From positions 120,415 through 184,414 of the forward strand of contig JAGNLL010000001.1 in assembly GCA_017999675.1 (NCBI GenBank): a stretch of DNA of 64,000 nt, given 5' to 3'. Below the pieces are notes generated by a model. That model searched no databases. It was not told where the DNA came from and worked only from the letters and a program-made list of their open reading frames with translations. The DNA comes from Rickettsiales bacterium (GTDB lineage Bacteria; Pseudomonadota; Alphaproteobacteria; Rickettsiales; UBA1997). Shown in pieces: positions 1 through 23,333 of the stretch. A program made the position numbers and the translations under genes. Position 1 is the stretch's first letter; every line of letters starts with the position of its first letter.

Positions 1-308
1 AGCTAAAAGAAGAAACTGGAATTGATCAAATAGACGTAAAAGTACTTAAAAAAAGCTTAGGACACCACTACTACAACCTACCCTACAAACTGCAAAAAAA
101 ATTCTGGGGCGGCAAATATTTGGGGCAAAAACAACGCTGGTATTTGGCTGAATTTATTGGTGATGACGCGGCGATAAATATTGCAACTGAGCATCCTGAA
201 TTTTCCGATTGGAAATGGATTGCGGGAGATGAAATTATCAGCGCCATTGTTGGCTTTAAGCGTGAGCTTTATGAGGATGTTTTGAGAGAGTTTAAGGGGT
301 TTTTGTAA
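1..308 (+). CDS. rppH: RNA pyrophosphohydrolase RppH/NudH (Nudix), 5' end cut by window edge
   Basis: Frame is open from nt 3. Translation LKEETGIDQ...GQKQRWYLAEF...EFSDWKWI matches the end of a Nudix box plus the RppH C-terminal region. Stop at 306-308. Confidence 0.8.
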   Translation, partial: LKEETGIDQIDVKVLKKSLGHHYYNLPYKLQKKFWGGKYLGQKQRWYLAEFIGDDAAINIATEHPEFSDWKWIAGDEIISAIVGFKRELYEDVLREFKGFL

Positions 309-314
309 TTTTCT

Positions 315-1217
315 TTAAACCGCCGGAGCGTTTTTCGATTTAAAAAAATTCTGTTTCGAGAGATTTAAAATAAATTTCATACTCACCAAAATCATCAAGC
401 AGCCCACAACTTTACTGGCTGTGACCACCTCACCCAAAAACATCGCCCCAAAAATTGTACCAAAAACCGGAATTAACAAAACCACACTCACCGCTGTTCT
501 AGGCCCCTCTTCAGCTATTAGTTTAAAAAACAAAACGTAGGCAACACCGGTGCAAAGCAGGCCTAAACCAAGTAACGAACCTGCCACTTTTTTATCAATC
601 ACGCTAAAATCGGTGAAAAATACGCTAGGCGAAAGTAGCAGCGCCGCAAACAAAACGCTGCCAGTTGCCATTGTGATTGATTCAATATGTTTGCACTTGG
701 CGTTGAGATAAAGTGAGGCGCCAGCGTAAGAAGCAGTTGCAACCAAAATTGCCAACACCGCCAAGCTGTAAGACCAAGTAATTTCTAGCGCAAAGCCGCC
801 ACCAAAATAAGTGACCACCACCCCAACAATTCCAAAAACTATTCCCCAAATTGCACTTTTATCGACAAAACGTTTGAGCACAAAAATTGAAATCAACACC
901 TCAAACATCGGCACGCAGCCATCCAAAATTGCGGCAATGCTGCTGTCAACTTCGCGCGACGAAATGGCAAATAAAGTGAAAGGCAAAGCAGAATTAAAAA
1001 ACCCAACAATCGCGTAATGCTTAAAATTTTTAACGACAAAAACTTTTTTGCGTTTGATTAATGCAAGGCCGTAAAGCAGCGCCCCACCTAGCACCAAGCG
1101 AGAAAATGTGACAAAAAACGGCAACAAATTTTCTGCCGAAACTTTGGTAAAAGCAGCAAAGCTCGACCAGATAATTCCAAGTAAAATTAGGATGAAGAGG
1201 TTGCTGTTTTTGTGCAT
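315..1217 (-). CDS. EamA/DMT-family permease
   Basis: 300-aa ORF that is hydrophobic throughout, with about 10 TM-like segments in two similar halves, typical of EamA (RhaT) transporters. Confidence 0.85.
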   Translation of the reverse strand: MHKNSNLFILILLGIIWSSFAAFTKVSAENLLPFFVTFSRLVLGGALLYGLALIKRKKVFVVKNFKHYAIVGFFNSALPFTLFAISSREVDSSIAAILDGCVPMFEVLISIFVLKRFVDKSAIWGIVFGIVGVVVTYFGGGFALEITWSYSLAVLAILVATASYAGASLYLNAKCKHIESITMATGSVLFAALLLSPSVFFTDFSVIDKKVAGSLLGLGLLCTGVAYVLFFKLIAEEGPRTAVSVVLLIPVFGTIFGAMFLGEVVTASKVVGCLMILVSMKFILNLSKQNFFKSKNAPAV

Positions 1218-1237
1218 TTTTGCCTGATTATTTTTTT

Positions 1238-1273
1238 AATAAAAAACCTCGGCTCTGAATTTCAGAACCGAGG
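1238..1273 (-). terminator. Hairpin plus U-run downstream of groEL (A/T runs on both sides, possibly bidirectional)
   Basis: cctcggctctg/cagaaccgagg stem with 1 mismatch at 1247-1273. An A-run at 1241-1246 reads as a T-run on the minus strand, 32 nt after the groEL stop. Confidence 0.6.
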
Positions 1274-1304
1274 TTTTTAGTTTTACTGGTGACCCGAAAG
1301 GATC

Positions 1305-2978
<1,674 letters not shown>

Positions 2979-3269
2979 TTATGATTCGATTACTGCTAGA
3001 ATATCTGATTCCTTCATGATGATAAGCTCTTTACCATCAACTTTAACTTCGGTGCCGCCCCATTTTGCGAACAAAACGCGGTCACCTTTTTTAACATCTA
3101 GTGCAACTCTTTTTCCGTTGTCGTCGCGAAGTCCTTCTCCAACAGAAACAACTTTGCCTTCAGCTGGTTTTTCTTTTGCAGTGTCTGGAATAATAATGCC
3201 GCCAGAAGTTTTGCTTTCGGCCTCAATGCGCTCAACAAGAACGCGGTCGTGTAAAGGTCTAACTTTCAT
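2979..3269 (-). CDS. groES: Co-chaperonin GroES
   Basis: [29 protein letters not shown]... is 96 aa from the internal ATG at 3267-3269. The longer track ORF (to 3392) is an unsupported 5' extension. Confidence 0.97.
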
Positions 3270-3357
3270 GTTTAGTTTTGATTTTAGGGTTAAAGAAAAA
3301 AGGACACCTAACCTAGTAAAAATTTGAAGCCTTACAAGGGGGGAGAAAGAAAAAAAC

Positions 3358-3609
3358 CTAAGCCAACAATTCATCAAGTTTGCCCGCGGCATCTAGTGCA
3401 TAAAGATCGTCACAACCACCAACATGCTTATCATCGATAAAAATTTGTGGCACAGTCATGCGGCCACCAGATTTTTTCATCATTTCGTTTCTTACTTCGT
3501 CGTCCGTAATTTTAATTTCGGTAAAAGCGACTCCCTTTCTTTGCAATAAAGCTTTGGCACGAGTGCAGTAAGGGCAAACTGTTGTTGTGTAAATTAAAAC
3601 TTTTTTCAT
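3358..3609 (-). CDS. grxC: Glutaredoxin 3
   Basis: 83 aa with a CPYC active site and the TVPQIFI...GGCDDL motif. Confidence 0.93.
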
Positions 3610-3612
3610 GTG

Positions 3613-4029
3613 TTAAAATGTGTTGCCAGCTCCAGACGACTGGAACTGATTTTTTTGAGGTAATGTTTCCACGTTATTATAATAAGTCGGCGGCACGTAA
3701 TATTGGTCGGCGTCGTAATTAGGATATTGGGTCGAAGGTGGAATGGCGTAAGGGTTTGAGTAATATCTCGAACCACCTTGCTGCGAATAAGGTGTAGCAG
3801 GCGGATAATAAGATGGCTGCTGCGGCGGATAATAATAAGGAGATGGCTGCTGATAGGGACGCTGATATTGAGGCTGTCCGTAATAATATTGGCTTGAATT
3901 TTGTACCGGAGTTGGAATTGGGCTTTGCGCTGGAGTGCTGTAGTCTTCGTAGCGCTCACTAGAGCAAGAATTAGCCATCACTAAAAAGCAAAGTGTATAA
4001 AAATATTTGACTAAACTTTGGGGCAACAT
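3613..4029 (-). CDS. Gln/Pro/Tyr-rich putative lipoprotein, paralog 1
   Basis: Internal ATG at 4027-4029 gives MLPQSLVKYFYTLCFLVMANSC (leader ending in Cys), then a QPY-rich low-complexity region and a conserved SRYYSNPYAIPP...YDADQYYVPPTY..NVE tail. Stop lies 3 nt before the grxC start. Confidence 0.7.
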   Translation of the reverse strand: MLPQSLVKYFYTLCFLVMANSCSSERYEDYSTPAQSPIPTPVQNSSQYYYGQPQYQRPYQQPSPYYYPPQQPSYYPPATPYSQQGGSRYYSNPYAIPPSTQYPNYDADQYYVPPTYYNNVETLPQKNQFQSSGAGNTF

Positions 4030-4106
4030 TTTTTTAAATTTGAAAGAGGTCTTAAAAAGCAAATAGAACAATAGATGGCGCTGATATAGAAACCGTTTTC
4101 TCAGAT

Positions 4107-4682
4107 TCAATAAGTGACTGCTCTATTATTTTGAATTGGCTGCACAGGCTCAACATTAGTTTGATAAGTTGGCGGCACGTAAAATTGGTCAGCATCATAG
4201 CGATTAGCTTGTGGGGCCTGTGGTGCTGGCGGAATGGCGTAAGGATTGGAATAAAAACGCGAGCCAGTATCAACCTGCTGTGGCCGATAATAAACTTGGC
4301 TTTGTTGTTGGTAATAAGGCTGTACCTGCTGATAAGGCTGCGGCGCGTAAGGCGATTGCTGATAGGCTTGTGGCATTTGCTGCTGTTGCGGCGTATAATT
4401 TTGCACCTGCGGATATGAAGGTTGGCGGTAATAATAATCTGGCGCAACTCTAGAAATTGGTGAATTTGCCCCTGCAGTTTGCGGAATTTTACCAGCCTCA
4501 AAACCAACCTTGTCATAAAGCTCGGGGCTTTTCTCATCAGGTATTAAATCGTATCTATCCACACAAGAAAAACTTAAAAACAGCGCAGCAAAAAGAGGTA
4601 AGGTTTTAAAATTTATTGCTTGATTCAGAATTATTCTGCTCAACGTTTCTATACTGTGTTGTAGGTACGTAATAACTATCAA
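4107..4682 (-). CDS. Gln/Pro/Tyr-rich putative lipoprotein, paralog 2 (start uncertain, probably downstream of 4682)
   Basis: Leader KTLPLFAALFLSFSC, a QPY-rich core and the same C-terminal block (SRFYSNPYAIPP...YDADQFYVPPTY). The maximal ORF starts at a TTG and overlaps paralog 3 by 77 nt. Confidence 0.65.
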   Translation of the reverse strand: MIVITYLQHSIETLSRIILNQAINFKTLPLFAALFLSFSCVDRYDLIPDEKSPELYDKVGFEAGKIPQTAGANSPISRVAPDYYYRQPSYPQVQNYTPQQQQMPQAYQQSPYAPQPYQQVQPYYQQQSQVYYRPQQVDTGSRFYSNPYAIPPAPQAPQANRYDADQFYVPPTYQTNVEPVQPIQNNRAVTY

Positions 4683-4914
4683 AGTCGTAATAAGGACTAT
4701 AATTTCTTGGCGGAAAATTGTAAGGAACGTTGTAAATTCTAGAGCTGGGTCTGTAGTAAGGTCGGTAGGTTTTTGGATAGTGATCGTAAGAATTTGAAAC
4801 CGCCGGAGCGCTACTCACATAAGTGACTTTTGGCGCGCAGGAGAAAAATAAAAACATTCCGAAAGCAAGAATGATCAATCTAAACTTGTGTGATTTTTCT
4901 TTGGTCATTTCCAT
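4606..4914 (-). CDS. Tyr/Pro-rich putative lipoprotein, paralog 3
   Basis: MEMTKEKSHKFRLIILAFGMFLFFSC leader with a lipobox-like LFFSC. The tail SRIYNVPYNFPP...YDFDSYYVPTTQYRNVE aligns with paralogs 1 and 2. Confidence 0.65.
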   Translation of the reverse strand: MEMTKEKSHKFRLIILAFGMFLFFSCAPKVTYVSSAPAVSNSYDHYPKTYRPYYRPSSRIYNVPYNFPPRNYSPYYDFDSYYVPTTQYRNVEQNNSESSNKF

Positions 4915-5030
4915 TTAATTACAGCGCATTTATCAAATTCGTGCGTGTTAAATATTAACCAATCAAACAAAAGCAAGCTTGGCGACCACCAAAAAAATCG
5001 CACCCCTTCTTTCGTATTAAAACGACATTC

Positions 5031-6113
5031 ATGACTCAAAATTCTGACCAAAAATTTATCGCCTACGCCTTAAATTTAGCCAAACAAAACCTTGGACTAA
5101 CCGCGCCAAATCCGGTTGTGGGCTGCGTTATTGTTAAAAATGGCGAAATTATTTCTAGCGGCGTCACGGCAAAAAACGGCCGGCCGCACGCCGAAAAAAT
5201 TGCCATTGAGAAAGTTGCCAATAAAGAAATTTTACGCGGAGCCACACTTTACGTCACGCTTGAACCCTGCTCTCACTTTGGTCAAACGCCTCCTTGCGTG
5301 GACGAAATAATCAAATGCGGTTTTAAAAAAGTTGTAATCGCAACCCAAGACCCCGACCAAAGAGTAAACGGCTCTGGTATTAAAAAACTGCAAGAAGCTG
5401 CAATTGACGTGGTTGTAGGCGTTTTAGAAAAAGAGGCGCGCGAAATTAATCGCGCATTTTTTAAAGCCCGCCAAAGCGGCCTGCCCTTTGTCACACTAAA
5501 ACTTGCAACCAGTTTGGATGGAAAAATCGCCACCAAAAATTTTGACAGCAAGTGGATTACCTCGCAAAAATCTCGCCTTTTTGCACATCATTTACGCGCC
5601 ACCAACGACGCAATTTTGGTTGGTGCCAACACCATTAAAAAAGACAATCCCAGCCTTGATTGCCGCATCTTGGGGCTAGAAGATTTTTCACCAAAAAGAT
5701 TCGTTATTTCCAACTCACTTGATTTTGATTTGAGTGCTAAAGTTTTTCAAAATTGCGAAAAAATTTCGACAACCATTTTGAGCAGCAAGAGTTCTGACAA
5801 ATTTCAAAATCTAATTTTGTGCGACGAAAAAAACGGACAGGTTGATTTGCGAAATGCACTAGAAAAACTCTGCCAAAGCGGCGTTAATTCTGTGTTGGTT
5901 GAGGGTGGCCAAAATATTGCCACACAGTTTTTGAGGGGAAATTTAGTTGACGAGTTGGTGTGGATTAGAAGCTCAAAAATTATCGGAGATGACGCAATTG
6001 CTGCGATTGGAGATTTAGGTTTTGTAAATCTTTCGGAAGTTTTGAACGGTTTTACAAATACTGAAACCAGAATTTCAGAAGATGATTTAATCGAAATTTA
6101 TCGTAAAAAATAA
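5031..6113 (+). CDS. ribD: Bifunctional riboflavin biosynthesis deaminase/reductase RibD
   Basis: 360 aa. N-terminal CMP/dCMP deaminase motifs (HAE...PCxxC: TLEPCSHFGQTPPC) plus a C-terminal RibD reductase domain. Confidence 0.95.
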   Translation: MTQNSDQKFIAYALNLAKQNLGLTAPNPVVGCVIVKNGEIISSGVTAKNGRPHAEKIAIEKVANKEILRGATLYVTLEPCSHFGQTPPCVDEIIKCGFKKVVIATQDPDQRVNGSGIKKLQEAAIDVVVGVLEKEAREINRAFFKARQSGLPFVTLKLATSLDGKIATKNFDSKWITSQKSRLFAHHLRATNDAILVGANTIKKDNPSLDCRILGLEDFSPKRFVISNSLDFDLSAKVFQNCEKISTTILSSKSSDKFQNLILCDEKNGQVDLRNALEKLCQSGVNSVLVEGGQNIATQFLRGNLVDELVWIRSSKIIGDDAIAAIGDLGFVNLSEVLNGFTNTETRISEDDLIEIYRKK

Positions 6114-6119
6114 CACAAA

Positions 6120-6223
6120 AAAAACCGTCGGTTGAGCGGAGTCGAAACCAGCGGAAGGTTCCTGCTTCAATATCTAAGCAGGAACCTTCCGCTGGTTTCG
6201 ACTCCGCTCAACCGACGGTTTTT
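6120..6223. repeat. Perfect long palindrome (48-nt arms, 8-nt loop) between convergent ribD and the glycosyltransferase
   Basis: Arm 6120-6167 is the exact reverse complement of 6176-6223. Loop is caatatct. The element is GC-rich relative to its flanks. Confidence 0.9.
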
Positions 6224-6232
6224 GGAAAACCC

Positions 6233-7417
6233 CTAAACCACCCGCCTTAAAACTTCTCTGTAAACCTTAATTGTCTCACCACACATCTTCTCATTTGAGA
6301 AATTCTCTTCGACATTTTTGCGCCCCGCTGCACCCATTTGGTCAGCCTCTTCCTTCGACATTTCCAAAGCCTTGTCGATTAACTCAGCAAATTTTTCGAC
6401 ATCATTTACCTCAACTAAAAACCCAGTTTTGCCATCAATTACCGTTTCAAGCGAACCGCCAATTTTTGTTGAAATAATAATTCTGCTCGAGGCCTGCGCT
6501 TCAATGGCAATGCGGCCAAAAGCTTCAGCGCGAACGCTTGGGCACACAACTAAATGCGACACCGCGTAAGCTGCTGGCATATCTTTACAAAGCCCGCAAA
6601 GTTGAACTTTTCCAGCCAAACCTCTTTCAACAATTCTGCTTTCGATTTTTTTTCTGAATTGTTTGTGACCGTGATCTGAACCAATCATCACGCAAAAAAA
6701 GTCGTGTTTAACTTGTGCTAATGCTTCAATTAAAAACTCGTGACCCTTCCAAGACGTGAATCGCGCTGGCATTAAAATAATTTTTTTGTCATCCGGCAAA
6801 TGCCATTTTTTGCTTAGATCGATGATGCGGTTTTTTGAAACTTTGTCGTAATCAAAATATCCAAGCTCAGCGCCGCGTTGAATTGTGACGATTTTTTCTT
6901 CCAGAGAAGTTGGGTAATTTTGCTGATAATTTTGAATCAAGTAATCTTTGATGAAGCCAGACACCGCAATCACTTCGTCGGCTCTTAGCATCAAAGCATT
7001 GTAGATTTTTTTGAGAGGAAAAACCTGCCAGTTCAAAAAGTTTAACGAGTAAGTGCCGTGCACCGTTGCAACGATTTTTACGTGCAGTTTTTTGCAAGCA
7101 AAATAGGCGCTCCACATTGGCGCTCTTGATCTCACGTGAACAATGTCAACGCTGTGCTCAACTAAAAGTTTTTCGAGTTTTTTGTTGTTAAAATAAATCG
7201 TCAGCGGGTTTTTGCTGTGAACCGGAAGCGTGATGTGAGTAATGCCGGCCTCGCGCAATTGATAAACCAGCACGCCACCTTTTGAAACCACAATTGGCTC
7301 AAAACCATCTTTTTTAAGCGCCTTGGCAATATCAATAACGCCACGCTCAACGCCGCCACTTTCAAGACCGGGTAGAATTTGCATTACTACCGGTTTTCTG
7401 CTGTGAGATCTTTCCAT
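6233..7417 (-). CDS. Glycosyltransferase, family 4 (GT-B, RfaG-like)
   Basis: 394 aa with N-terminal MQILPGLESGGVERGV and a C-terminal EAFGRIAIEAQA (E-x7-E-like) motif. Start lies 1 nt after the purA stop. Confidence 0.85.
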   Translation of the reverse strand: MERSHSRKPVVMQILPGLESGGVERGVIDIAKALKKDGFEPIVVSKGGVLVYQLREAGITHITLPVHSKNPLTIYFNNKKLEKLLVEHSVDIVHVRSRAPMWSAYFACKKLHVKIVATVHGTYSLNFLNWQVFPLKKIYNALMLRADEVIAVSGFIKDYLIQNYQQNYPTSLEEKIVTIQRGAELGYFDYDKVSKNRIIDLSKKWHLPDDKKIILMPARFTSWKGHEFLIEALAQVKHDFFCVMIGSDHGHKQFRKKIESRIVERGLAGKVQLCGLCKDMPAAYAVSHLVVCPSVRAEAFGRIAIEAQASSRIIISTKIGGSLETVIDGKTGFLVEVNDVEKFAELIDKALEMSKEEADQMGAAGRKNVEENFSNEKMCGETIKVYREVLRRVV

Positions 7418-7418
7418 T

Positions 7419-8690
7419 TTAATTAACGATGATTGTTTCTTCGCGCTTAGGGCCAGTTGAAATTATTGAGGCCTTAATTGCGCATAATTCTTCAATTCTT
7501 TTAATGTAGTTTAGTGCTTTTTGTGGCAAGTCGCTCAAAGATTTTGAACCGACCGTGCTTTGCTGCCAGCCTTCCATTTCTTCGTAGATTGGCTCAATTT
7601 GATTCCACAAATGATTGGCTTGAGGCAAGTAGTCGTAGGTTTTGCCGCCAATTTTGTAGCCAACGCAAATTTTGATTTTTTCTAATTTGTCGAGCACGTC
7701 GAGCTTGGTTAGCGCCACTTCTTTTACTGAAGAAAGTTGGATTGCTTGACGCACCAAAACCGCATCAAACCAACCGCAGCGTCTATCGCGACCAGTGACG
7801 GTGCCAACTTCTTTGCCTTCAATGCGTAAGAAGTTGCCAATTTCACATTCAAGTTCAGTTGGGAAAGGACCAGATCCAACACGAGTTGTGTAAGCTTTCA
7901 AAATGCCAATTGTTTTGTGCAAATCAGCAACACCCAAGCAAGACCCAAGAGCAATTTGCCCCGCCATTGTGTTGCTTGAAGTGACGAATGGGAATGTGCC
8001 GTAAGTCACGTCCAACAAGGCTCCTTGCGCCCCTTCAAACATTACCGCTTTGAAAGCAGAAAGTTTTTTAGCAATTTCAAAAGCTGGCTTGGCGTGAGTT
8101 AAAAGGCGCTCGCGAACTGGTGCTAGTTCAGCAATAATTTGCGCGCTCGTCACAATTTCAGCACCCAAGCTTTTGCGCAAAAGATTGTGGTAAAAAAGCA
8201 AATTTTCTACGCGCTCAGCCAAAACTTTTTCGTCGATTAAATCGCAAATTCTAACAGCTCTGCGCCCTGCTCTGTCTTCGTAAGCTGGGCCAATTCCGCG
8301 GCCGGTGGTGCCAATTTTATTTTCGCCTTTTTTGCCTTCTAAAAGTTGGTCAAGTTCGCGGTGAATTGACAAAATCAAACAAGCATTTTCGGCAATCGCC
8401 AAATTTTCTGCGACGATTTTAATGCCCGCTTCTTCAATTTTTTGAATCTCGGCAAAAAGCGCGATTGGATCAACCACCACGCCACTTCCAATCACCGAAA
8501 ATTTGCCACGAATGATCCCTGAAGGTAGCAAGCTAAGTTTGTAAGTTTTGTCACCAACTTTAATGGTGTGGCCAGCGTTGTGACCGCCTTGAAAGCGCAC
8601 TACGGCGTCGAATTTATCGGCTAAAAAATCAACGATTTTACCTTTTCCTTCATCGCCCCATTGTAGGCCGATTATTGCTGTGTTGGTCAT
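7419..8690 (-). CDS. purA: Adenylosuccinate synthase
   Basis: 423 aa with the QWGDEGKGK P-loop, GGHNAGHT and TTGRGIGP motifs. Confidence 0.98.
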   Translation of the reverse strand: MTNTAIIGLQWGDEGKGKIVDFLADKFDAVVRFQGGHNAGHTIKVGDKTYKLSLLPSGIIRGKFSVIGSGVVVDPIALFAEIQKIEEAGIKIVAENLAIAENACLILSIHRELDQLLEGKKGENKIGTTGRGIGPAYEDRAGRRAVRICDLIDEKVLAERVENLLFYHNLLRKSLGAEIVTSAQIIAELAPVRERLLTHAKPAFEIAKKLSAFKAVMFEGAQGALLDVTYGTFPFVTSSNTMAGQIALGSCLGVADLHKTIGILKAYTTRVGSGPFPTELECEIGNFLRIEGKEVGTVTGRDRRCGWFDAVLVRQAIQLSSVKEVALTKLDVLDKLEKIKICVGYKIGGKTYDYLPQANHLWNQIEPIYEEMEGWQQSTVGSKSLSDLPQKALNYIKRIEELCAIKASIISTGPKREETIIVN

Positions 8691-8691
8691 T

Positions 8692-8919
8692 TTAATTTTC
8701 TTCCTTCATTTGATTTTTTAGGCCTAAGATCACCGAATTATTTCCAGTCTTTTTTTCAATCGTGAAAAATTTGCTGCAGTAAGGACAAGTCACCGAGTCT
8801 TTATTTCCCATGTTCAAGTAAACTAGTGGATGAGTGCCAGCCCCGTCGCAAGAAACTTTTTTTGAATCAACGTGCAGCGTTTCAAGCGGACTATTTTTAG
8901 AATTAATTTGAGGATTCAT
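8692..8919 (-). CDS. Small zinc-finger (zf-CHCC-like) protein
   Basis: 75 aa. SCDGAG..HPLVYLNM...CPYCSKFF resembles the NDUFS6-type CHCC zinc-finger domain common in alphaproteobacteria. Confidence 0.7.
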   Translation of the reverse strand: MNPQINSKNSPLETLHVDSKKVSCDGAGTHPLVYLNMGNKDSVTCPYCSKFFTIEKKTGNNSVILGLKNQMKEEN

Positions 8920-9019
8920 TTTTAAAAATTGAGAGATTAGAAATTGCGGCCTTGGCAGATGTGACGGCAGCGCAAGTTATTTTCCACATTCGAGTTTTTC
9001 AATCTAAGTTTTCAACAAA

Positions 9020-10816
9020 ATGAAAAAGATTTTCACCGCAATTTTTGTCGCGCTTTTTTTAAATTTTAGCAGCGCTTTTGCCGCCAGTAGCGACTGGCAC
9101 GAAAATCAAAACAAGGCCGCCAAAACAAAATTGCTCGCCAGTTTTTACGAAGACTCTGAAGGAAACAAAAAACTAATCGCTGGCCTTCACTTTCAATTAG
9201 AAGATGGCTGGAAAATTTACGGCAATGATGCCGGCGGAATTGGCATGCCACCAAGCCTTGATTTTAATGGTTCAACAAACTTTAGCAAAAACGAAATTAT
9301 CTGGCCAAAAGCCGAAAAAGGCGAAGAAGATTTGGGCGAAGAAGTAATCAACTACACCTTCTACAAACACGAAGTTGTGCTGCCCGTTAAAATTGAATTA
9401 CAAAATTTAGAAAACGCGTCTGAGCTTACACTAAAGCTAGATTACGGCCTTTGCAAAGATGTGTGCATTCCGGTTAGCGAAAGTTTTTCACTTAAAATTT
9501 CTGACACAATTGATGAAGAAGCCTTGGCAACAATTCAAAAATTTTTAGAAGAAAAAATTAGCTCTGGCGAAAAAAATATCGCCCCAGAAAAAAAGATGGA
9601 TCTTACAACCACGCTACTTTCAGCAATTTTGTTAGCCATTTTTGGCGGTGCAATTTTAAACATCATGCCCTGCGTTTTGCCGGTTTTATCAATCAAACTT
9701 TTGTCGATAATCAAACACTCTGACGCGCCAATTTCGCGAATTCGTTTTGCTTTTTTATCAACAATCTTTGGCATTTTAATCTGCTTTTTGGTCTTCGCTA
9801 TTCTTACCGCTGCAATCAAACTAACCGGCAATTCTCTAGGCTGGGGACTACAATTTCAAAACCCATATTTCTTAATTTCACTAATCGTAATTTTGGTGTT
9901 GTTTTTGGGAAATATGCTTGGGGTTTTTGAAATTAATTTTGATCAAATTTTGACCTCAATTTTAAACAAAAAAATTACCGACAGCGAAGGCAAAAAAAAC
10001 ATCTTCATCCCCAATTTTCTTTCCGGAGTTTTGGCGGTATTACTTGCCACACCTTGCTCGGCACCATTTTTGGGTTCGGCAATTTCTTTTGCCCTCACCC
10101 AAAATTTTTCAACCATTTTTCTAATTTCAATTAGCATCGGCATTGGATTTTCACTGCCCTACATCATCCTTTTAGTCTCGCCAAAATTGGTTTATTTGCT
10201 GCCAAAACCTGGCAATTGGATGCTGCAAATTAAGCAAGTTCTCGCCGGACTATTGGCCGCTACAATCATGTGGTTAATCTACGTTCTCTCGCAAAATCTT
10301 GGCGCCCTGCCAGCGTTTTTGGCTGGTGCTTTGGCAATTTCAATTTTGGCCTGCGTTAAAATTAAATCAGATTTGTTAAAATATGTTTCAATTGCGCTGA
10401 TCGCCTCTTGCACCTTTGCTTTGCCAGCGGGGCTAAAAAATCACCAAGCCGAAAAAAAAGAAATTTACGAAAGTTTTTGGCTCAATTTTGACGAAGCCGA
10501 AATTTACCAACATGTTGCTAAAGGCCGAGTTGTGGTAATTGACGTGACTGCCGATTGGTGCCTAAGCTGCAAATTCAACAAGCTGCGCATTTTGCAAGAT
10601 GACGAGGTGATGACCAAATTAAAAAGCGGCAACATCATTGCCATGCGCGGCGACATTACAAAACCCAATGAAGAAATTATGAAATATCTTCACAAAAATA
10701 ATCGCTTCGCAATTCCCTTTAATGCGGTTTATGGCCCCAATGCTCCAAAGGGTTTATTGACTAGCGAACTTCTTACCAAAAAAGAGCTTTTTGAACTAAT
10801 CGAAAAAGCAAAATAA
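9020..10816 (+). CDS. DsbD/ScsB-family thiol:disulfide interchange (protein-disulfide reductase) membrane protein
   Basis: 598 aa with a signal peptide, a periplasmic N-domain, a multi-TM core with conserved Cys ([16 protein letters not shown]) and a C-terminal thioredoxin fold (DWCLSCK). Confidence 0.85.
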
Positions 10817-21539: not shown

Positions 21540-23333
21540 ATGAGCAAAAAAAGTCCTGAAGAAACCATTGTTGAAAATCCAGCCGAGGCTCAAATAAAAG
21601 AATTTGCCGCCTTAAAGCGCAGCAAAGTAGATCTTAATGCCGTCAACTCCGCTACTGGCGAAACAATCGTGATGCAGGCCGTCAGAGAGGGGAAGCTAAC
21701 TCTGCTTGACATTTTAATAACTAACGACGCCGACCTCAAAATCAAAAACGCCCAAAACCAAAACGCTCTAGAGATAGCTGCAGCAACTGAAAACTCTGAG
21801 GCAATTAATAAAATAATCACCTGTCATCTGAAGAAAAATGGAACTTACGACGTCAAATCATTGCTAGATCTTTTAACCACAATTTATGGCAACGAAACTA
21901 TTAAAGATTCTTTAAACGATGAAAGCCTAAGAGAATTAAACAAAATAAGAAGAAATCCAAATTTAGAAATTGGAGACAGCCCAGAATTTCCAATGATAAA
22001 GCGCTTATTGGCAGAATTAATTTACGAAAATTATACGAGCTACAGAAAGGAAGACTTTAAATTCTCGCAACAAGATTTGTTGGATTCACTTAAGCTTGGA
22101 GGCGTAGTTTATGCAGATATCGGAGAATCTATAACAATAATTTCTGAAAAAGATAAAGATGTTCAAGTTGTTAAAAAAGTAGATCAAAATCTCGCTAGAT
22201 ACAAAAAAGGCCCAAGTTTTAGTCTAGATTCATCTATCGAGGACTTCAAAAAATTACTTACGCAAGGTGCCAAGGCTAATCTTCCAGACAAAGATGGAAT
22301 AACGCCGCTAATGATAGCTGCACAAAATAGCTCTATCAAATTTTTCTCAGCCCTCAAAGAACTTAATATAAAAGCCGATCTTAACGCCAAAGATTCAGAA
22401 GGAAAAACTGCACTAATTCATGCCGTATCAGCTTCAACTGATTATGATTATAGCGGAAGAGATCATCGAGCGCCAATTATGGCAATTTCACTGCCTACAA
22501 ACTACTACAAAATCACCGAATATCTTTTGAAAAACGGGGCCAATCCTAATGAAAAATATGGCGAAAATACTGCTTTAGAAATTGCGGTACGAGAAAACCA
22601 TCATCCAAGAATCATTTCGGCATTGATTAATGCTGGAGCCGAAATTTCAGAAAAGGCTGTTGAGATTGCCGAGCGCAATAGAAACTTCACAATACAAACC
22701 TTGTTAGAGGATTATCTGCAGCCTGCTAGCGAACAACCTAGCGAGTTCGAAATTGCAGTGCGCGATAACGATCTAGAAAACATTTTAAGATTAATTAAAG
22801 ACGGAGCCGAAATTTCAGAAAGAGCCATGAGAATTTCTAGAATGGACGATAACAAAGAAATTACTCCTCTACTAGAATACCTGCAAAATCTTACAAAACC
22901 TGCGCAGGAAAGATATATTCAAGAACTTGCACAAAGAGTACTAAACTTCGTCACAATAAAGTTTCATCCCACTAATCCTGATCATGATATCACCGACGGA
23001 ACAAGAGCCCTAGATGTAACTAGAATTTTTTCTGGTGGGTGGTCAGATGAAGATCAATCAAAATTAAAAAGAGAGGCTGCCACAAAGTTTTCTCCTTCAG
23101 AACTCCTTGTTTTATCAGCCCCTAATTTACCAGGTCATAAAATATGCCAAGAACATTTGGCCAAACTCATAGAAGGAGGCAAATCAGACGTTAACTCTTT
23201 GCAGTCAAGCGCTTTGGCTCGGGTTTATTTGAACCTTTTTTCAGATGATCTAGAGGCCCAACCAGATATAAAAGCATCTTCGGCTCAATCCTTAAAAGCA
23301 AAATGTCTTAACAGCGATCGCACACTTGGATAA
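21540..23333 (+). CDS. Ankyrin-repeat protein
   Basis: 597 aa with multiple ANK-like units (e.g. DKDGITPLMIAAQNSS, GKTALIHAV, ENTALEIAVRENH..IISALINAGAE). AT-rich codon usage. Confidence 0.85.
   Translation: MSKKSPEETIVENPAEAQIKEFAALKRSKVDLNAVNSATGETIVMQAVREGKLTLLDILITNDADLKIKNAQNQNALEIAAATENSEAINKIITCHLKKNGTYDVKSLLDLLTTIYGNETIKDSLNDESLRELNKIRRNPNLEIGDSPEFPMIKRLLAELIYENYTSYRKEDFKFSQQDLLDSLKLGGVVYADIGESITIISEKDKDVQVVKKVDQNLARYKKGPSFSLDSSIEDFKKLLTQGAKANLPDKDGITPLMIAAQNSSIKFFSALKELNIKADLNAKDSEGKTALIHAVSASTDYDYSGRDHRAPIMAISLPTNYYKITEYLLKNGANPNEKYGENTALEIAVRENHHPRIISALINAGAEISEKAVEIAERNRNFTIQTLLEDYLQPASEQPSEFEIAVRDNDLENILRLIKDGAEISERAMRISRMDDNKEITPLLEYLQNLTKPAQERYIQELAQRVLNFVTIKFHPTNPDHDITDGTRALDVTRIFSGGWSDEDQSKLKREAATKFSPSELLVLSAPNLPGHKICQEHLAKLIEGGKSDVNSLQSSALARVYLNLFSDDLEAQPDIKASSAQSLKAKCLNSDRTLG

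Follow-up and report, generated by a model that had tools for sequence, protein, structure and literature searches.

Three diverged paralogs of an undescribed tyrosine-, proline- and glutamine-rich lipoprotein-type family in freshwater Rickettsiales-like bacteria

In the 64,000-nucleotide stretch of Rickettsiales bacterium DNA analysed here (contig JAGNLL010000001.1; hereafter the window), three consecutive minus-strand genes, named paralogs A, B and C, lie directly upstream of the glutaredoxin gene grxC and the chaperonin genes groES and groEL (groESL). They are three anciently diverged members of a real, undescribed protein family that is restricted to uncultivated freshwater Rickettsiales-like alphaproteobacteria, and we are confident that this family is of the lipoprotein type. 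Each protein combines a lipoprotein-type leader, a mature chain rich in Tyr, Pro and Gln that is predicted to be disordered, and a conserved pair of C-terminal motifs. As to their role, our preference, which is tentative and falls a little short of an even call, is that A, B and C are flexible tethers, anchored by lipid, from which conserved short linear motifs are offered to a conserved envelope partner.

Paralogy and extent of the family

The resemblance among A, B and C is true paralogy and goes beyond an artefact of composition. BLASTP with compositional adjustment over the C-terminal block gave E = 9e-9 for A against C and 7e-15 for B against C. Mutual identity of the three proteins is only ~ 40-50%. 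The block aligns in all three proteins as SR[IFY]Y[NS][VN]PY..PP ... YD[FA]D[SQ][YF]YVP[TP]T..NVE, in agreement with the first-pass annotation, made from the letters alone, which had also listed the three minus-strand open reading frames (ORFs) with leaders ending in LFFSC, LSFSC and MANSC (in the sequence, FLFFSC, FLSFSC and VMANSC). All three are present where it had placed them, and the string of Gln, Pro, Tyr and Ser quoted there is located in the B reading frame.

A word-indexed search with a profile of the C-terminal block retrieved 13 small hypothetical proteins. When a 15-sequence profile was run against 1.84 billion cluster representatives, 276 of them (counted at the 50% identity level) matched at E ≤ 0.001, including 148 at E ≤ 1e-10, with a best E of 1e-30. 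The best 150 of the 276 matches are 90-250 aa long, and the longer family members are N-terminal over-extensions without extra domains. A 150-sequence profile collected 305 clusters (90% identity), none of which bears a functional name or a Pfam domain. Named sources of members are metagenome-assembled genomes (MAGs) labelled as Rickettsiales, Alphaproteobacteria or Pseudomonadota bacterium.

The profile search that had been suggested for the block thus recovers a family and no characterised homologue, and the earlier failure to recognise these proteins is borne out by the databases, in which every member is called hypothetical. Pfam-A and NCBIfam contain no family that matches A, B or C at E ≤ 0.01; at E values up to 10 only noise was obtained, with CbtA, TFIIA and DUF4106 far below the cut-off. 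Across 150 members, Pfam gave at this threshold isolated and weak matches to PROL5-SMR (three members) and Extensin_1 (one); these matches, at most 3/150 members per family, are compositional and indicate no homology. The best hit of a sequence profile search through PDB was an unrelated hyaluronidase (E 0.17), and no description of the family was found in the literature on Tyr-rich disordered lipoproteins in Rickettsiales and on UBA1997.

Conserved motifs and types of members

The family is characterized by two C-terminal motifs, SRxYSNPYAxPP and YDxDQYYVPP(T)xY. In the 150-sequence alignment, positions S87, Y90, N92, P93, Y94, Y105, D106, D108, Y110, Y111 and P114 (C numbering) are invariant or nearly so, and motif logos anchored by regular expressions reveal high conservation also of R, Q, V and the first Pro of VPP. 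The last residue of the chain is Tyr or Phe in 139/216 members. A candidate function of the VPPTY segment as a WW-domain ligand (PPxY) was rejected, as many members have VPPTQ, VPPTN or VPPSS at this place while YDxDQYYVPP is invariant.

The three paralogs represent different types. Paralog A is short and slightly basic, has the variant YDFDSYYVPTT and terminates in ...NKF; YDFD and a ...KF terminus recur in its orthologues. Paralog C is of intermediate length and ends in ...GNTF. Paralog B is the long type, distinguished by two extra motifs and a Gln-rich spacer. The first of its motifs, with the N-proximal consensus [DE]P-Y-L-Y-D-[KR]-x-G-F-D-x-G, is matched by a regular expression in 64 of the 216 members, usually 6-8 residues past the putatively lipidated Cys, and 15 residues past it in the B protein of the window. 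The second is VAPDYYYRQP, whose APDYY core was found in 37/216 members; it also occurs in P0015, P0096, P0099, P0154 and P0179. Comparison of orthologues shows insertions and deletions in the Q/P-rich middle of the chains, and fixed motifs.

Selection, copy number and distribution

To define the species distribution, a pattern scan was performed with one genome per GTDB species. It yielded 67 loci, essentially all of them in MAGs from lakes and other freshwater. Array copies are on the same strand and intact in all 67 species loci. In the count based on hidden Markov models, which covered 72 sequences (71 fetched loci and the window), one copy was found in 22 sequences, two in 29, three in 19 and four in 2. 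The comparison of synteny and copy number in relatives, proposed with the first description of the locus, therefore discloses same-strand arrays of 1-4 copies, adjoined by the glutaredoxin gene (grx) in most cases. Identity of GroEL to that of the window ranges across the clade from 76 to 97%.

Ratios of nonsynonymous to synonymous substitution rates (dN/dS) in orthologue groups are 0.08-0.40 for A, 0.16-0.32 for B and 0.10-0.34 for C. These low values include unsaturated pairs with dS of 0.22-0.9, such as L005 against L007 (dS 0.22-0.30). A, B and C are real genes under purifying selection. That they might instead be decaying low-complexity ORFs, or that a real gene might lie in another frame or strand, is effectively refuted: the same frame is open and undamaged in 67 species, dN/dS values lie clearly below 1, profile matches reach E 1e-30 and signal peptides are conserved. 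What could be said for such a view is that the low-complexity composition yields long ORFs in alternative frames and that several members are cut short or extended too far by public gene callers. The frameshifted orthologous loci expected under decay were not seen in this sample.

Each of the three paralogs has its own recognisable orthologues and its own features or extra motifs, and the triplication appears to be old and diversified. Of the two explanations offered previously, selection for dosage or for diversification, the second agrees with these features. Dosage amplification was rejected, given the low mutual identity of A, B and C and the separate orthologues of each.

Two observations concern copies outside the usual array. 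In L010, L015, L018 and L019, extra and more divergent copies lie between grx and groES, so that grx is embedded in the array. In L049, a copy is present at a second locus, between a probable thrS and a probable trpD (read from translation), and it contains PQNPYGYQQPYA-like repeats.

Gene models

Coordinates of all features are listed in Table 1. The start of A is most likely the second ATG, at 4908 (MTKEKSH...), rather than the upstream ATG at 4914, because orthologues begin with MTKEKS or MIKEKS and the identical public protein P0001 has 100 aa. Paralog B has no ATG; its TTG start is situated inside the GTT GAG codons of A, and the two genes overlap by 38 nt. At the homologous site in L003, L005, L007 and L036, ATG-TTG occurs within the K-N-V-E codons of A. 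The overlap (4606-4643) is dual-coding: relatives have AAA AAT GTT GAA, which includes ATG-TTG, and the window has AGA AAC GTT GAG, which retains TTG only, the ATG of relatives being changed into ACG. The overlap itself is kept among the closest relatives. Versions of 165 and 191 aa in the ORF list are over-extensions.

In public gene calls for this family, the signal peptide is often missing or the call runs on into an alternative frame of the gene before it, because the start of B overlaps A. One consequence for annotation is that the lipoprotein nature of the family is invisible in public records, where its genes are missed, truncated or over-extended. Two alternative-frame ORFs rich in Ile, Leu and Arg occur on the minus strand of the window, one over C (3606-3959, 117 aa) and the other over B (4052-4537, 161 aa). 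They arise as by-products of the Tyr/Pro/Gln codon composition, and conservation lends them no separate support.

Table 1. Positions of paralogs A, B and C, their modules and adjoining features in the window
Feature	Position	Strand	Sequence or size	Basis or remark
Paralog A	4606-4908	minus	100 aa, 77 aa mature	ORF and sequence; orthologue starts
Leader of A	Cys codon 4839-4837	minus	MTKEKSHKFRLIILAFGMFLFFS, then C	passes PS51257
C-terminal block of A	4639-4743	minus	S56-E90 = SRIYNVPYNFPPRNYSPYYDFDSYYVPTTQYRNVE	alignments
Paralog B	4107-4643	minus	178 aa, 152 aa mature	TTG start 4643-4641
Leader of B	Cys codon 4565-4563	minus	MSRIILNQAINFKTLPLFAALFLSFS, then C	passes PS51257
B-type N-proximal motif	4491-4526	minus	PELYDKVGFEAG	regular expression; conservation in B orthologues
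B-type second motif	4413-4451	minus	RVAPDYYYRQPSY	conserved in B orthologues
C-terminal block of B	4149-4262	minus	S128-E165 = SRFYSNPYAIPPAPQAPQANRYDADQFYVPPTYQTNVE	alignments and BLASTP
Paralog C	3613-4029	minus	138 aa, 117 aa mature	ATG at 4029
Leader of C	Cys codon 3966-3964	minus	MLPQSLVKYFYTLCFLVMANS, then C	fails strict PS51257, Asn at -2
C-terminal block of C	3667-3771	minus	S87-E121 = SRYYSNPYAIPPSTQYPNYDADQYYVPPTYYNNVE	alignments
grxC	3358-3609	minus	83 aa	dithiol CPYC glutaredoxin; Pfam PF00462, E 3e-23
Sigma32-like element	3307-3338	minus	CTTGTAAG-N14-CTAGGTTAGG	in the grx-groES spacer
groES, groEL	1305-3269 (groES 2979-3269, groEL 1305-2954)	minus		syntenic neighbours outside the lipoprotein unit
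Divergent intergenic region ribD-A	4909-5030		122 nt	ribD on the plus strand, 5031-6113

Lipoprotein-type leaders

Leaders of A, B and C consist of K/R followed by a hydrophobic run. They were tested against PS51257, the PROSITE lipobox pattern, with the Cys at position 15-35 and K/R within the first seven residues. A and B pass it fully, while C fails: residue -2 is Asn, and the earliest K is residue 8. Leaders of C orthologues end in MATAC, MVTAC or VVASC, and their lipoboxes fit the pattern. Among 123 database members, 88 pass the strict form, and in most of the others an xx[SAG]C box can be seen or the gene call is truncated. Asp at +2 is found in none of the 88 passing members, and 83 of them have a mature chain in which the lipobox Cys is the only one. 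In the 150-sequence alignment, the column of the lipobox Cys is at least 90% conserved. These features uphold the initial view of the leaders as lipoprotein-type, and A, B and C would accordingly be lipidated, as judged from their sequences.

A different possibility is that the products, at least that of C, are unlipidated secreted or periplasmic peptides cut by signal peptidase I (VMA/NSC), in which case the C-terminal Tyr or Phe could serve as a ligand of PDZ proteases, a decoy for stress signalling that resembles the C-terminus of outer-membrane proteins. The failure of C to fit PS51257 in this genome agrees with this, as do the aromatic ends of most members and the conserved adjacency of heat-shock genes. 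We nevertheless consider it very unlikely, in view of the conserved Cys at the end of the hydrophobic segment and the canonical lipoboxes of C orthologues. About a third of the members have no aromatic terminal residue, and a separate promoter-like element is present at groESL.

Composition and predicted disorder

Mature chains of A, B and C contain 13-19% Tyr, 13-18% Pro and up to 18% Gln, with Q+N amounting to 13-22% and Lys to 0.9-3.9%; there is no Trp, and the only Cys is that of the lipobox. In the family as a whole, the composition is 17.4% Y, 14.7% P, 12.4% Q and 8.4% N. The likeness to prion-like or adhesive domains drawn in the first-pass annotation is one of composition. Prion-like domains are Q/N-rich and poor in Pro and charge over about 60 residues or more, and the high Pro content here would speak against amyloid. 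Tandem Repeats Finder detected no repeats at a score of at least 30 in the segment 3500-5000, which indicates that low complexity is compositional rather than a result of slippage arrays.

AlphaFold2 was run twice on paralog C, with 15- and 150-sequence alignments. In both runs, the only secondary structure is a confident helix at residues 4-20, corresponding to the signal peptide. Block-mean values of pLDDT, the confidence score of the model, are 40-64 over the mature part, with the exception of the block following the helix (64 and 70) and residues 91-100 (59 and 73). The peak of 73, obtained with the 150-sequence alignment, coincides with SRxYSNPY, where no secondary structure was modelled. 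The mature chains are thus predicted to be disordered and without a folded domain, in line with the low-complexity, non-globular character ascribed to them from composition.

Genomic neighbourhood and transcription

A, B, C and grxC likely constitute one transcription unit, with groESL controlled separately, as suggested by spacing and by signals in the DNA. The stop codon of C (3615-3613) and the grx ATG (3609-3607) leave the 3-nt gap reported earlier. Glutaredoxin follows the array in 59 loci, and the distance from the stop of the last paralog is between -1 and 30 nt in 51 of these 59, with a median of 8. A terminator scan of the minus strand detected nothing between paralog A and grx, nor in the grx-groES spacer. 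Co-transcription with grxC, which had been considered probable, is consistent with these results. The divergent intergenic region 4909-5030 presumably holds the promoter of the A-B-C-grx unit; a sigma70 scan reported no promoter in this spacer. Divergent ribD is located upstream of the array in nearly all loci. An Rfam scan of positions 1-10000 gave no matches relevant to the locus and only hairpin artefacts.

The gap between grx and groES is at least 92 nt across loci (median 131). A motif of the type CTTGTAA[AG] was observed in 28/51 orthologous spacers, many of which continue with a CTA-type second box, CTA(A/G)GTT, after N~15. The corresponding element of the window is probably groESL's own RpoH/sigma32 heat-shock promoter, an assignment based on the known RpoH consensus of alphaproteobacteria. 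The idea that the set runs into grxC-groESL can thus be retained for grxC and not for groESL, which has its own promoter-like element and lies some 90-150 nt away. Functional coupling to groESL was considered and rejected on the grounds of this separate conserved element, of a spacer with a median of ~ 130 nt, and of unrelated genes that are inserted in some loci. A few genomes have other genes, or one more paralog, between grx and groES, and the loci L017, L063, L065 and L067-69 have no downstream grx/groESL.

The vicinity of grxC brings forward another reading, a tyrosine-based redox or cross-linking layer, either a sacrificial oxidant sink or a dityrosine matrix, tied to glutaredoxin and DsbD. 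The mature chains, with their abundance of Tyr and almost no Met, Trp and Cys, would suit it, as would the tight adjoining of grx in most loci and the occurrence of DsbD inside the same syntenic block. Still, we find it highly improbable. Glutaredoxin is a cytoplasmic protein that leaves oxidised Tyr unrepaired, the neighbourhood showed no peroxidase or tyrosinase, and a function built on composition alone leaves the near-invariant ordered motifs unexplained. In addition, tight spacing in the window also joins clearly unrelated genes, as illustrated by GT4, purA and zf-CHCC, which are spaced 1 nt apart. Since tight spacing is common in this compact genome, membership in the grx operon implies no functional link.

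The segment 1-12300 of the window, a block with the order amidase-DsbD-zfCHCC-purA-GT4-ribD / lipoproteins-grx-groES-groEL-EamA, is shared with L070 and L071. Together with the 1-nt gene spacing, this indicates a compact and syntenically stable genome. Between the convergent ribD (stop at 6113) and GT4 glycosyltransferase (stop at 6233) genes, a palindrome was found at 6120-6223 on the plus strand, with a perfect 48-bp stem and an 8-nt loop. Its RNA fold has -98.3 kcal/mol (z = -20.9 compared to shuffles), and by eye it is GC-rich with respect to its surroundings. The palindrome is unique in the window and absent from 71 related loci, and weak Rfam matches to microRNA families are its artefacts. 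A terminator acting in both directions is one possible role; a palindromic element gained recently is another possibility. Elsewhere in the window, the ORF 62381-63520 on the plus strand (379 aa) has no Pfam match at E ≤ 1e-5.

Proposed role and the adhesin alternative

The tether reading is preferred because the family unites an anchor, a variable disordered spacer, invariant distal motifs and, in the B-type, motifs near the anchor. Following this proposal, the proteins would be exported by Sec, lipidated at the conserved Cys (residue 24, 27 or 22 in A, B and C) and cleaved by signal peptidase II. They would then probably reside in the outer membrane, as Asp at +2 was seen in no member that passes PS51257. 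Mature chains of 77, 152 and 117 aa would act as flexible tethers of different reach; a general polymer scaling estimate for 77-152 disordered residues is ~ 6-10 nm, with a contour length of ~ 23-46 nm, which would span distances from the outer membrane to peptidoglycan and up to the full width of the periplasm. At the membrane-distal end, SRxYSNPYAxPP and YDxDQYYVPP(T)xY, after which most members have Tyr or Phe at the C-terminus, would be presented to a conserved cell-envelope partner and dock on it. This partner would most simply belong to the bacterium's own envelope, because the distal motif is near invariant while GroEL identity spans 76-97%. In B-type members, PYLYD[KR]xGFDxG and VAPDYYYRQP may represent two further docking motifs near the anchor, making them bivalent linkers. 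The three genes and grxC would be expressed as a single compact unit, in which B may be translationally coupled to A by means of the 38-nt overlap, and groESL downstream would use its own promoter.

Several points weigh against this proposal. Sequence similarity to known envelope lipoprotein families was not observed. Low pLDDT is a proxy for disorder that falls short of demonstration, the sorting rule used for membrane location is taken from E. coli, and the lipobox of C is non-canonical in this genome (A-N-S-C). The block DsbD-zfCHCC-purA-GT4-ribD / lipoproteins-grx-groESL-EamA is syntenic even in distant relatives, and the link to grx may merely mirror conserved gene order in a compact genome. 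Finally, a core envelope function might be expected to be distributed more widely, and restriction to a single lineage accords no less well with a role tied to lifestyle, for example attachment.

The last point leads to the main rival explanation, in which the proteins are flipped to the cell surface and act there as adhesins, their sticky chains of Tyr, Pro and Gln and their conserved tip motif holding the bacterium to a eukaryotic partner such as a cryptophyte alga or another protist. In other systems, disordered chains of this Tyr/Pro-rich kind have adhesive properties. Members are confined to MAGs from freshwater that carry the label Rickettsiales or Alphaproteobacteria, and one locus is labelled UBA1997. 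Rickettsiales of the UBA1997 group are reported to live in freshwater only, as epibionts of cryptophytes, and cells were placed on the surface of these algae by CARD-FISH (bioRxiv 10.1101/2023.01.31.526412). The window also encodes a 597-aa ankyrin-repeat protein (21540-23333, plus strand; Pfam Ank_2, E 3e-24) of a kind typical of host-associated lineages, and this gene together with arginine-biosynthesis genes fits the description of the UBA1997 family, to which the window putatively belongs. Copy number variation (1-4) also speaks for adhesins, and clade restriction would agree with a lifestyle-specific role. On the other hand, conservation is highest in the putative binding tip, dN/dS is 0.08-0.40, and adhesins in contact with hosts usually diversify. 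The chains are poor in Lys and have no tandem peptide repeats, unlike mussel-type adhesives, and lipoproteins exported to the surface are exceptional in Proteobacteria. On balance, we regard the adhesin explanation as unlikely.

A more far-reaching form of it, to which we assign a still lower probability, would see a coat of lipid-anchored, wholly disordered Tyr-rich chains as the lineage-defining attachment device of "transition-stage" epibiotic Rickettsiales similar to UBA1997. The invariant YDxDQYYVPP tip would bind something conserved on the surface of algae or protists, or else self-association of the chains would produce a condensate-like adhesive layer. If true, this would be the first intrinsically disordered lipoprotein adhesin, and it would provide a handle on the origin of host association in Rickettsiales.

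Bacterial lipoproteins rarely consist, in their entire mature part, of a conserved disordered chain, and those that do are poorly understood. The little-studied clade that carries the family probably includes UBA1997 epibionts, whose place is between the free-living and the intracellular Rickettsiales. The family would accordingly represent either a new envelope adaptor, as in the tether reading, or a candidate factor for attachment at the outset of host association.

Comparison with known systems

Composition brings to mind Tyr/Pro-rich proteins such as mussel foot protein 1, with AKPSYPPTYK repeats, plant extensins, glutenins and salivary proline-rich proteins. The likeness lies in the content of Tyr, Pro and Gln, and YVPPTYY resembles SYPPTYK. 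However, tandem repeats and the Lys-rich (mussel foot protein) or Ser-Pro4 (extensin) motifs are absent in the family described here, which comprises bacterial proteins of the lipoprotein type without evidence of DOPA or hydroxyproline chemistry.

Disordered lipoprotein segments that have been studied, those of BamC/BamF, LpoB and LptM, are adaptors for essential envelope machines. LpoB of E. coli is an outer-membrane lipoprotein that passes through peptidoglycan by a disordered linker of ~ 50-60 residues and activates PBP1B. Shared features are the N-terminal lipid anchor, a long and flexible Pro-rich tether whose length would set the reach, and a distal binding element. This element is a folded globular domain in LpoB and a linear motif of 35-40 residues here; the two have no sequence similarity, and a link to penicillin-binding proteins (PBPs) was not found. 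LptM (YifL), a small and largely disordered lipoprotein, attaches to the LptD/E translocon, whose oxidative maturation it assists. It is comparable in being a very small lipoprotein without a folded domain and with a short conserved peptide, and in the redox-flavoured neighbourhood, formed here by grx and DsbD. It differs in that its CGxKGPLY-type motif is at the very N-terminus and that the protein is not rich in Tyr and Gln. No Pfam match to any lipoprotein-attachment family was obtained.

In BamF and BamC, lipoproteins of the outer-membrane BAM complex, a disordered stretch near the anchor docks on BamD by a short conserved motif (Anwari et al. 2012, PMC3359395). Small size and a disordered motif close to the anchor are common to both cases, and the B-type N-proximal motif, 6-8 residues past the Cys, occupies the same position. 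In contrast, BamF has a structured C-terminal part and an N-terminal motif, while the present family is predicted to be wholly disordered and its defining motif is C-terminal. Furthermore, BamF is specific to alphaproteobacteria and is reported in all of them (PMC3359395), and the present family was found in one freshwater clade only. Homology to BamF/BamC is not indicated by the Pfam-A/NCBIfam comparison of A, B and C at E ≤ 0.01, in which the presence of a BamF model is unverified. Membership in none of these families is supported, and the nearest functional analogues of A, B and C would be the disordered lipoprotein adaptors, represented by the BamC/BamF motifs, the LpoB linker and LptM.

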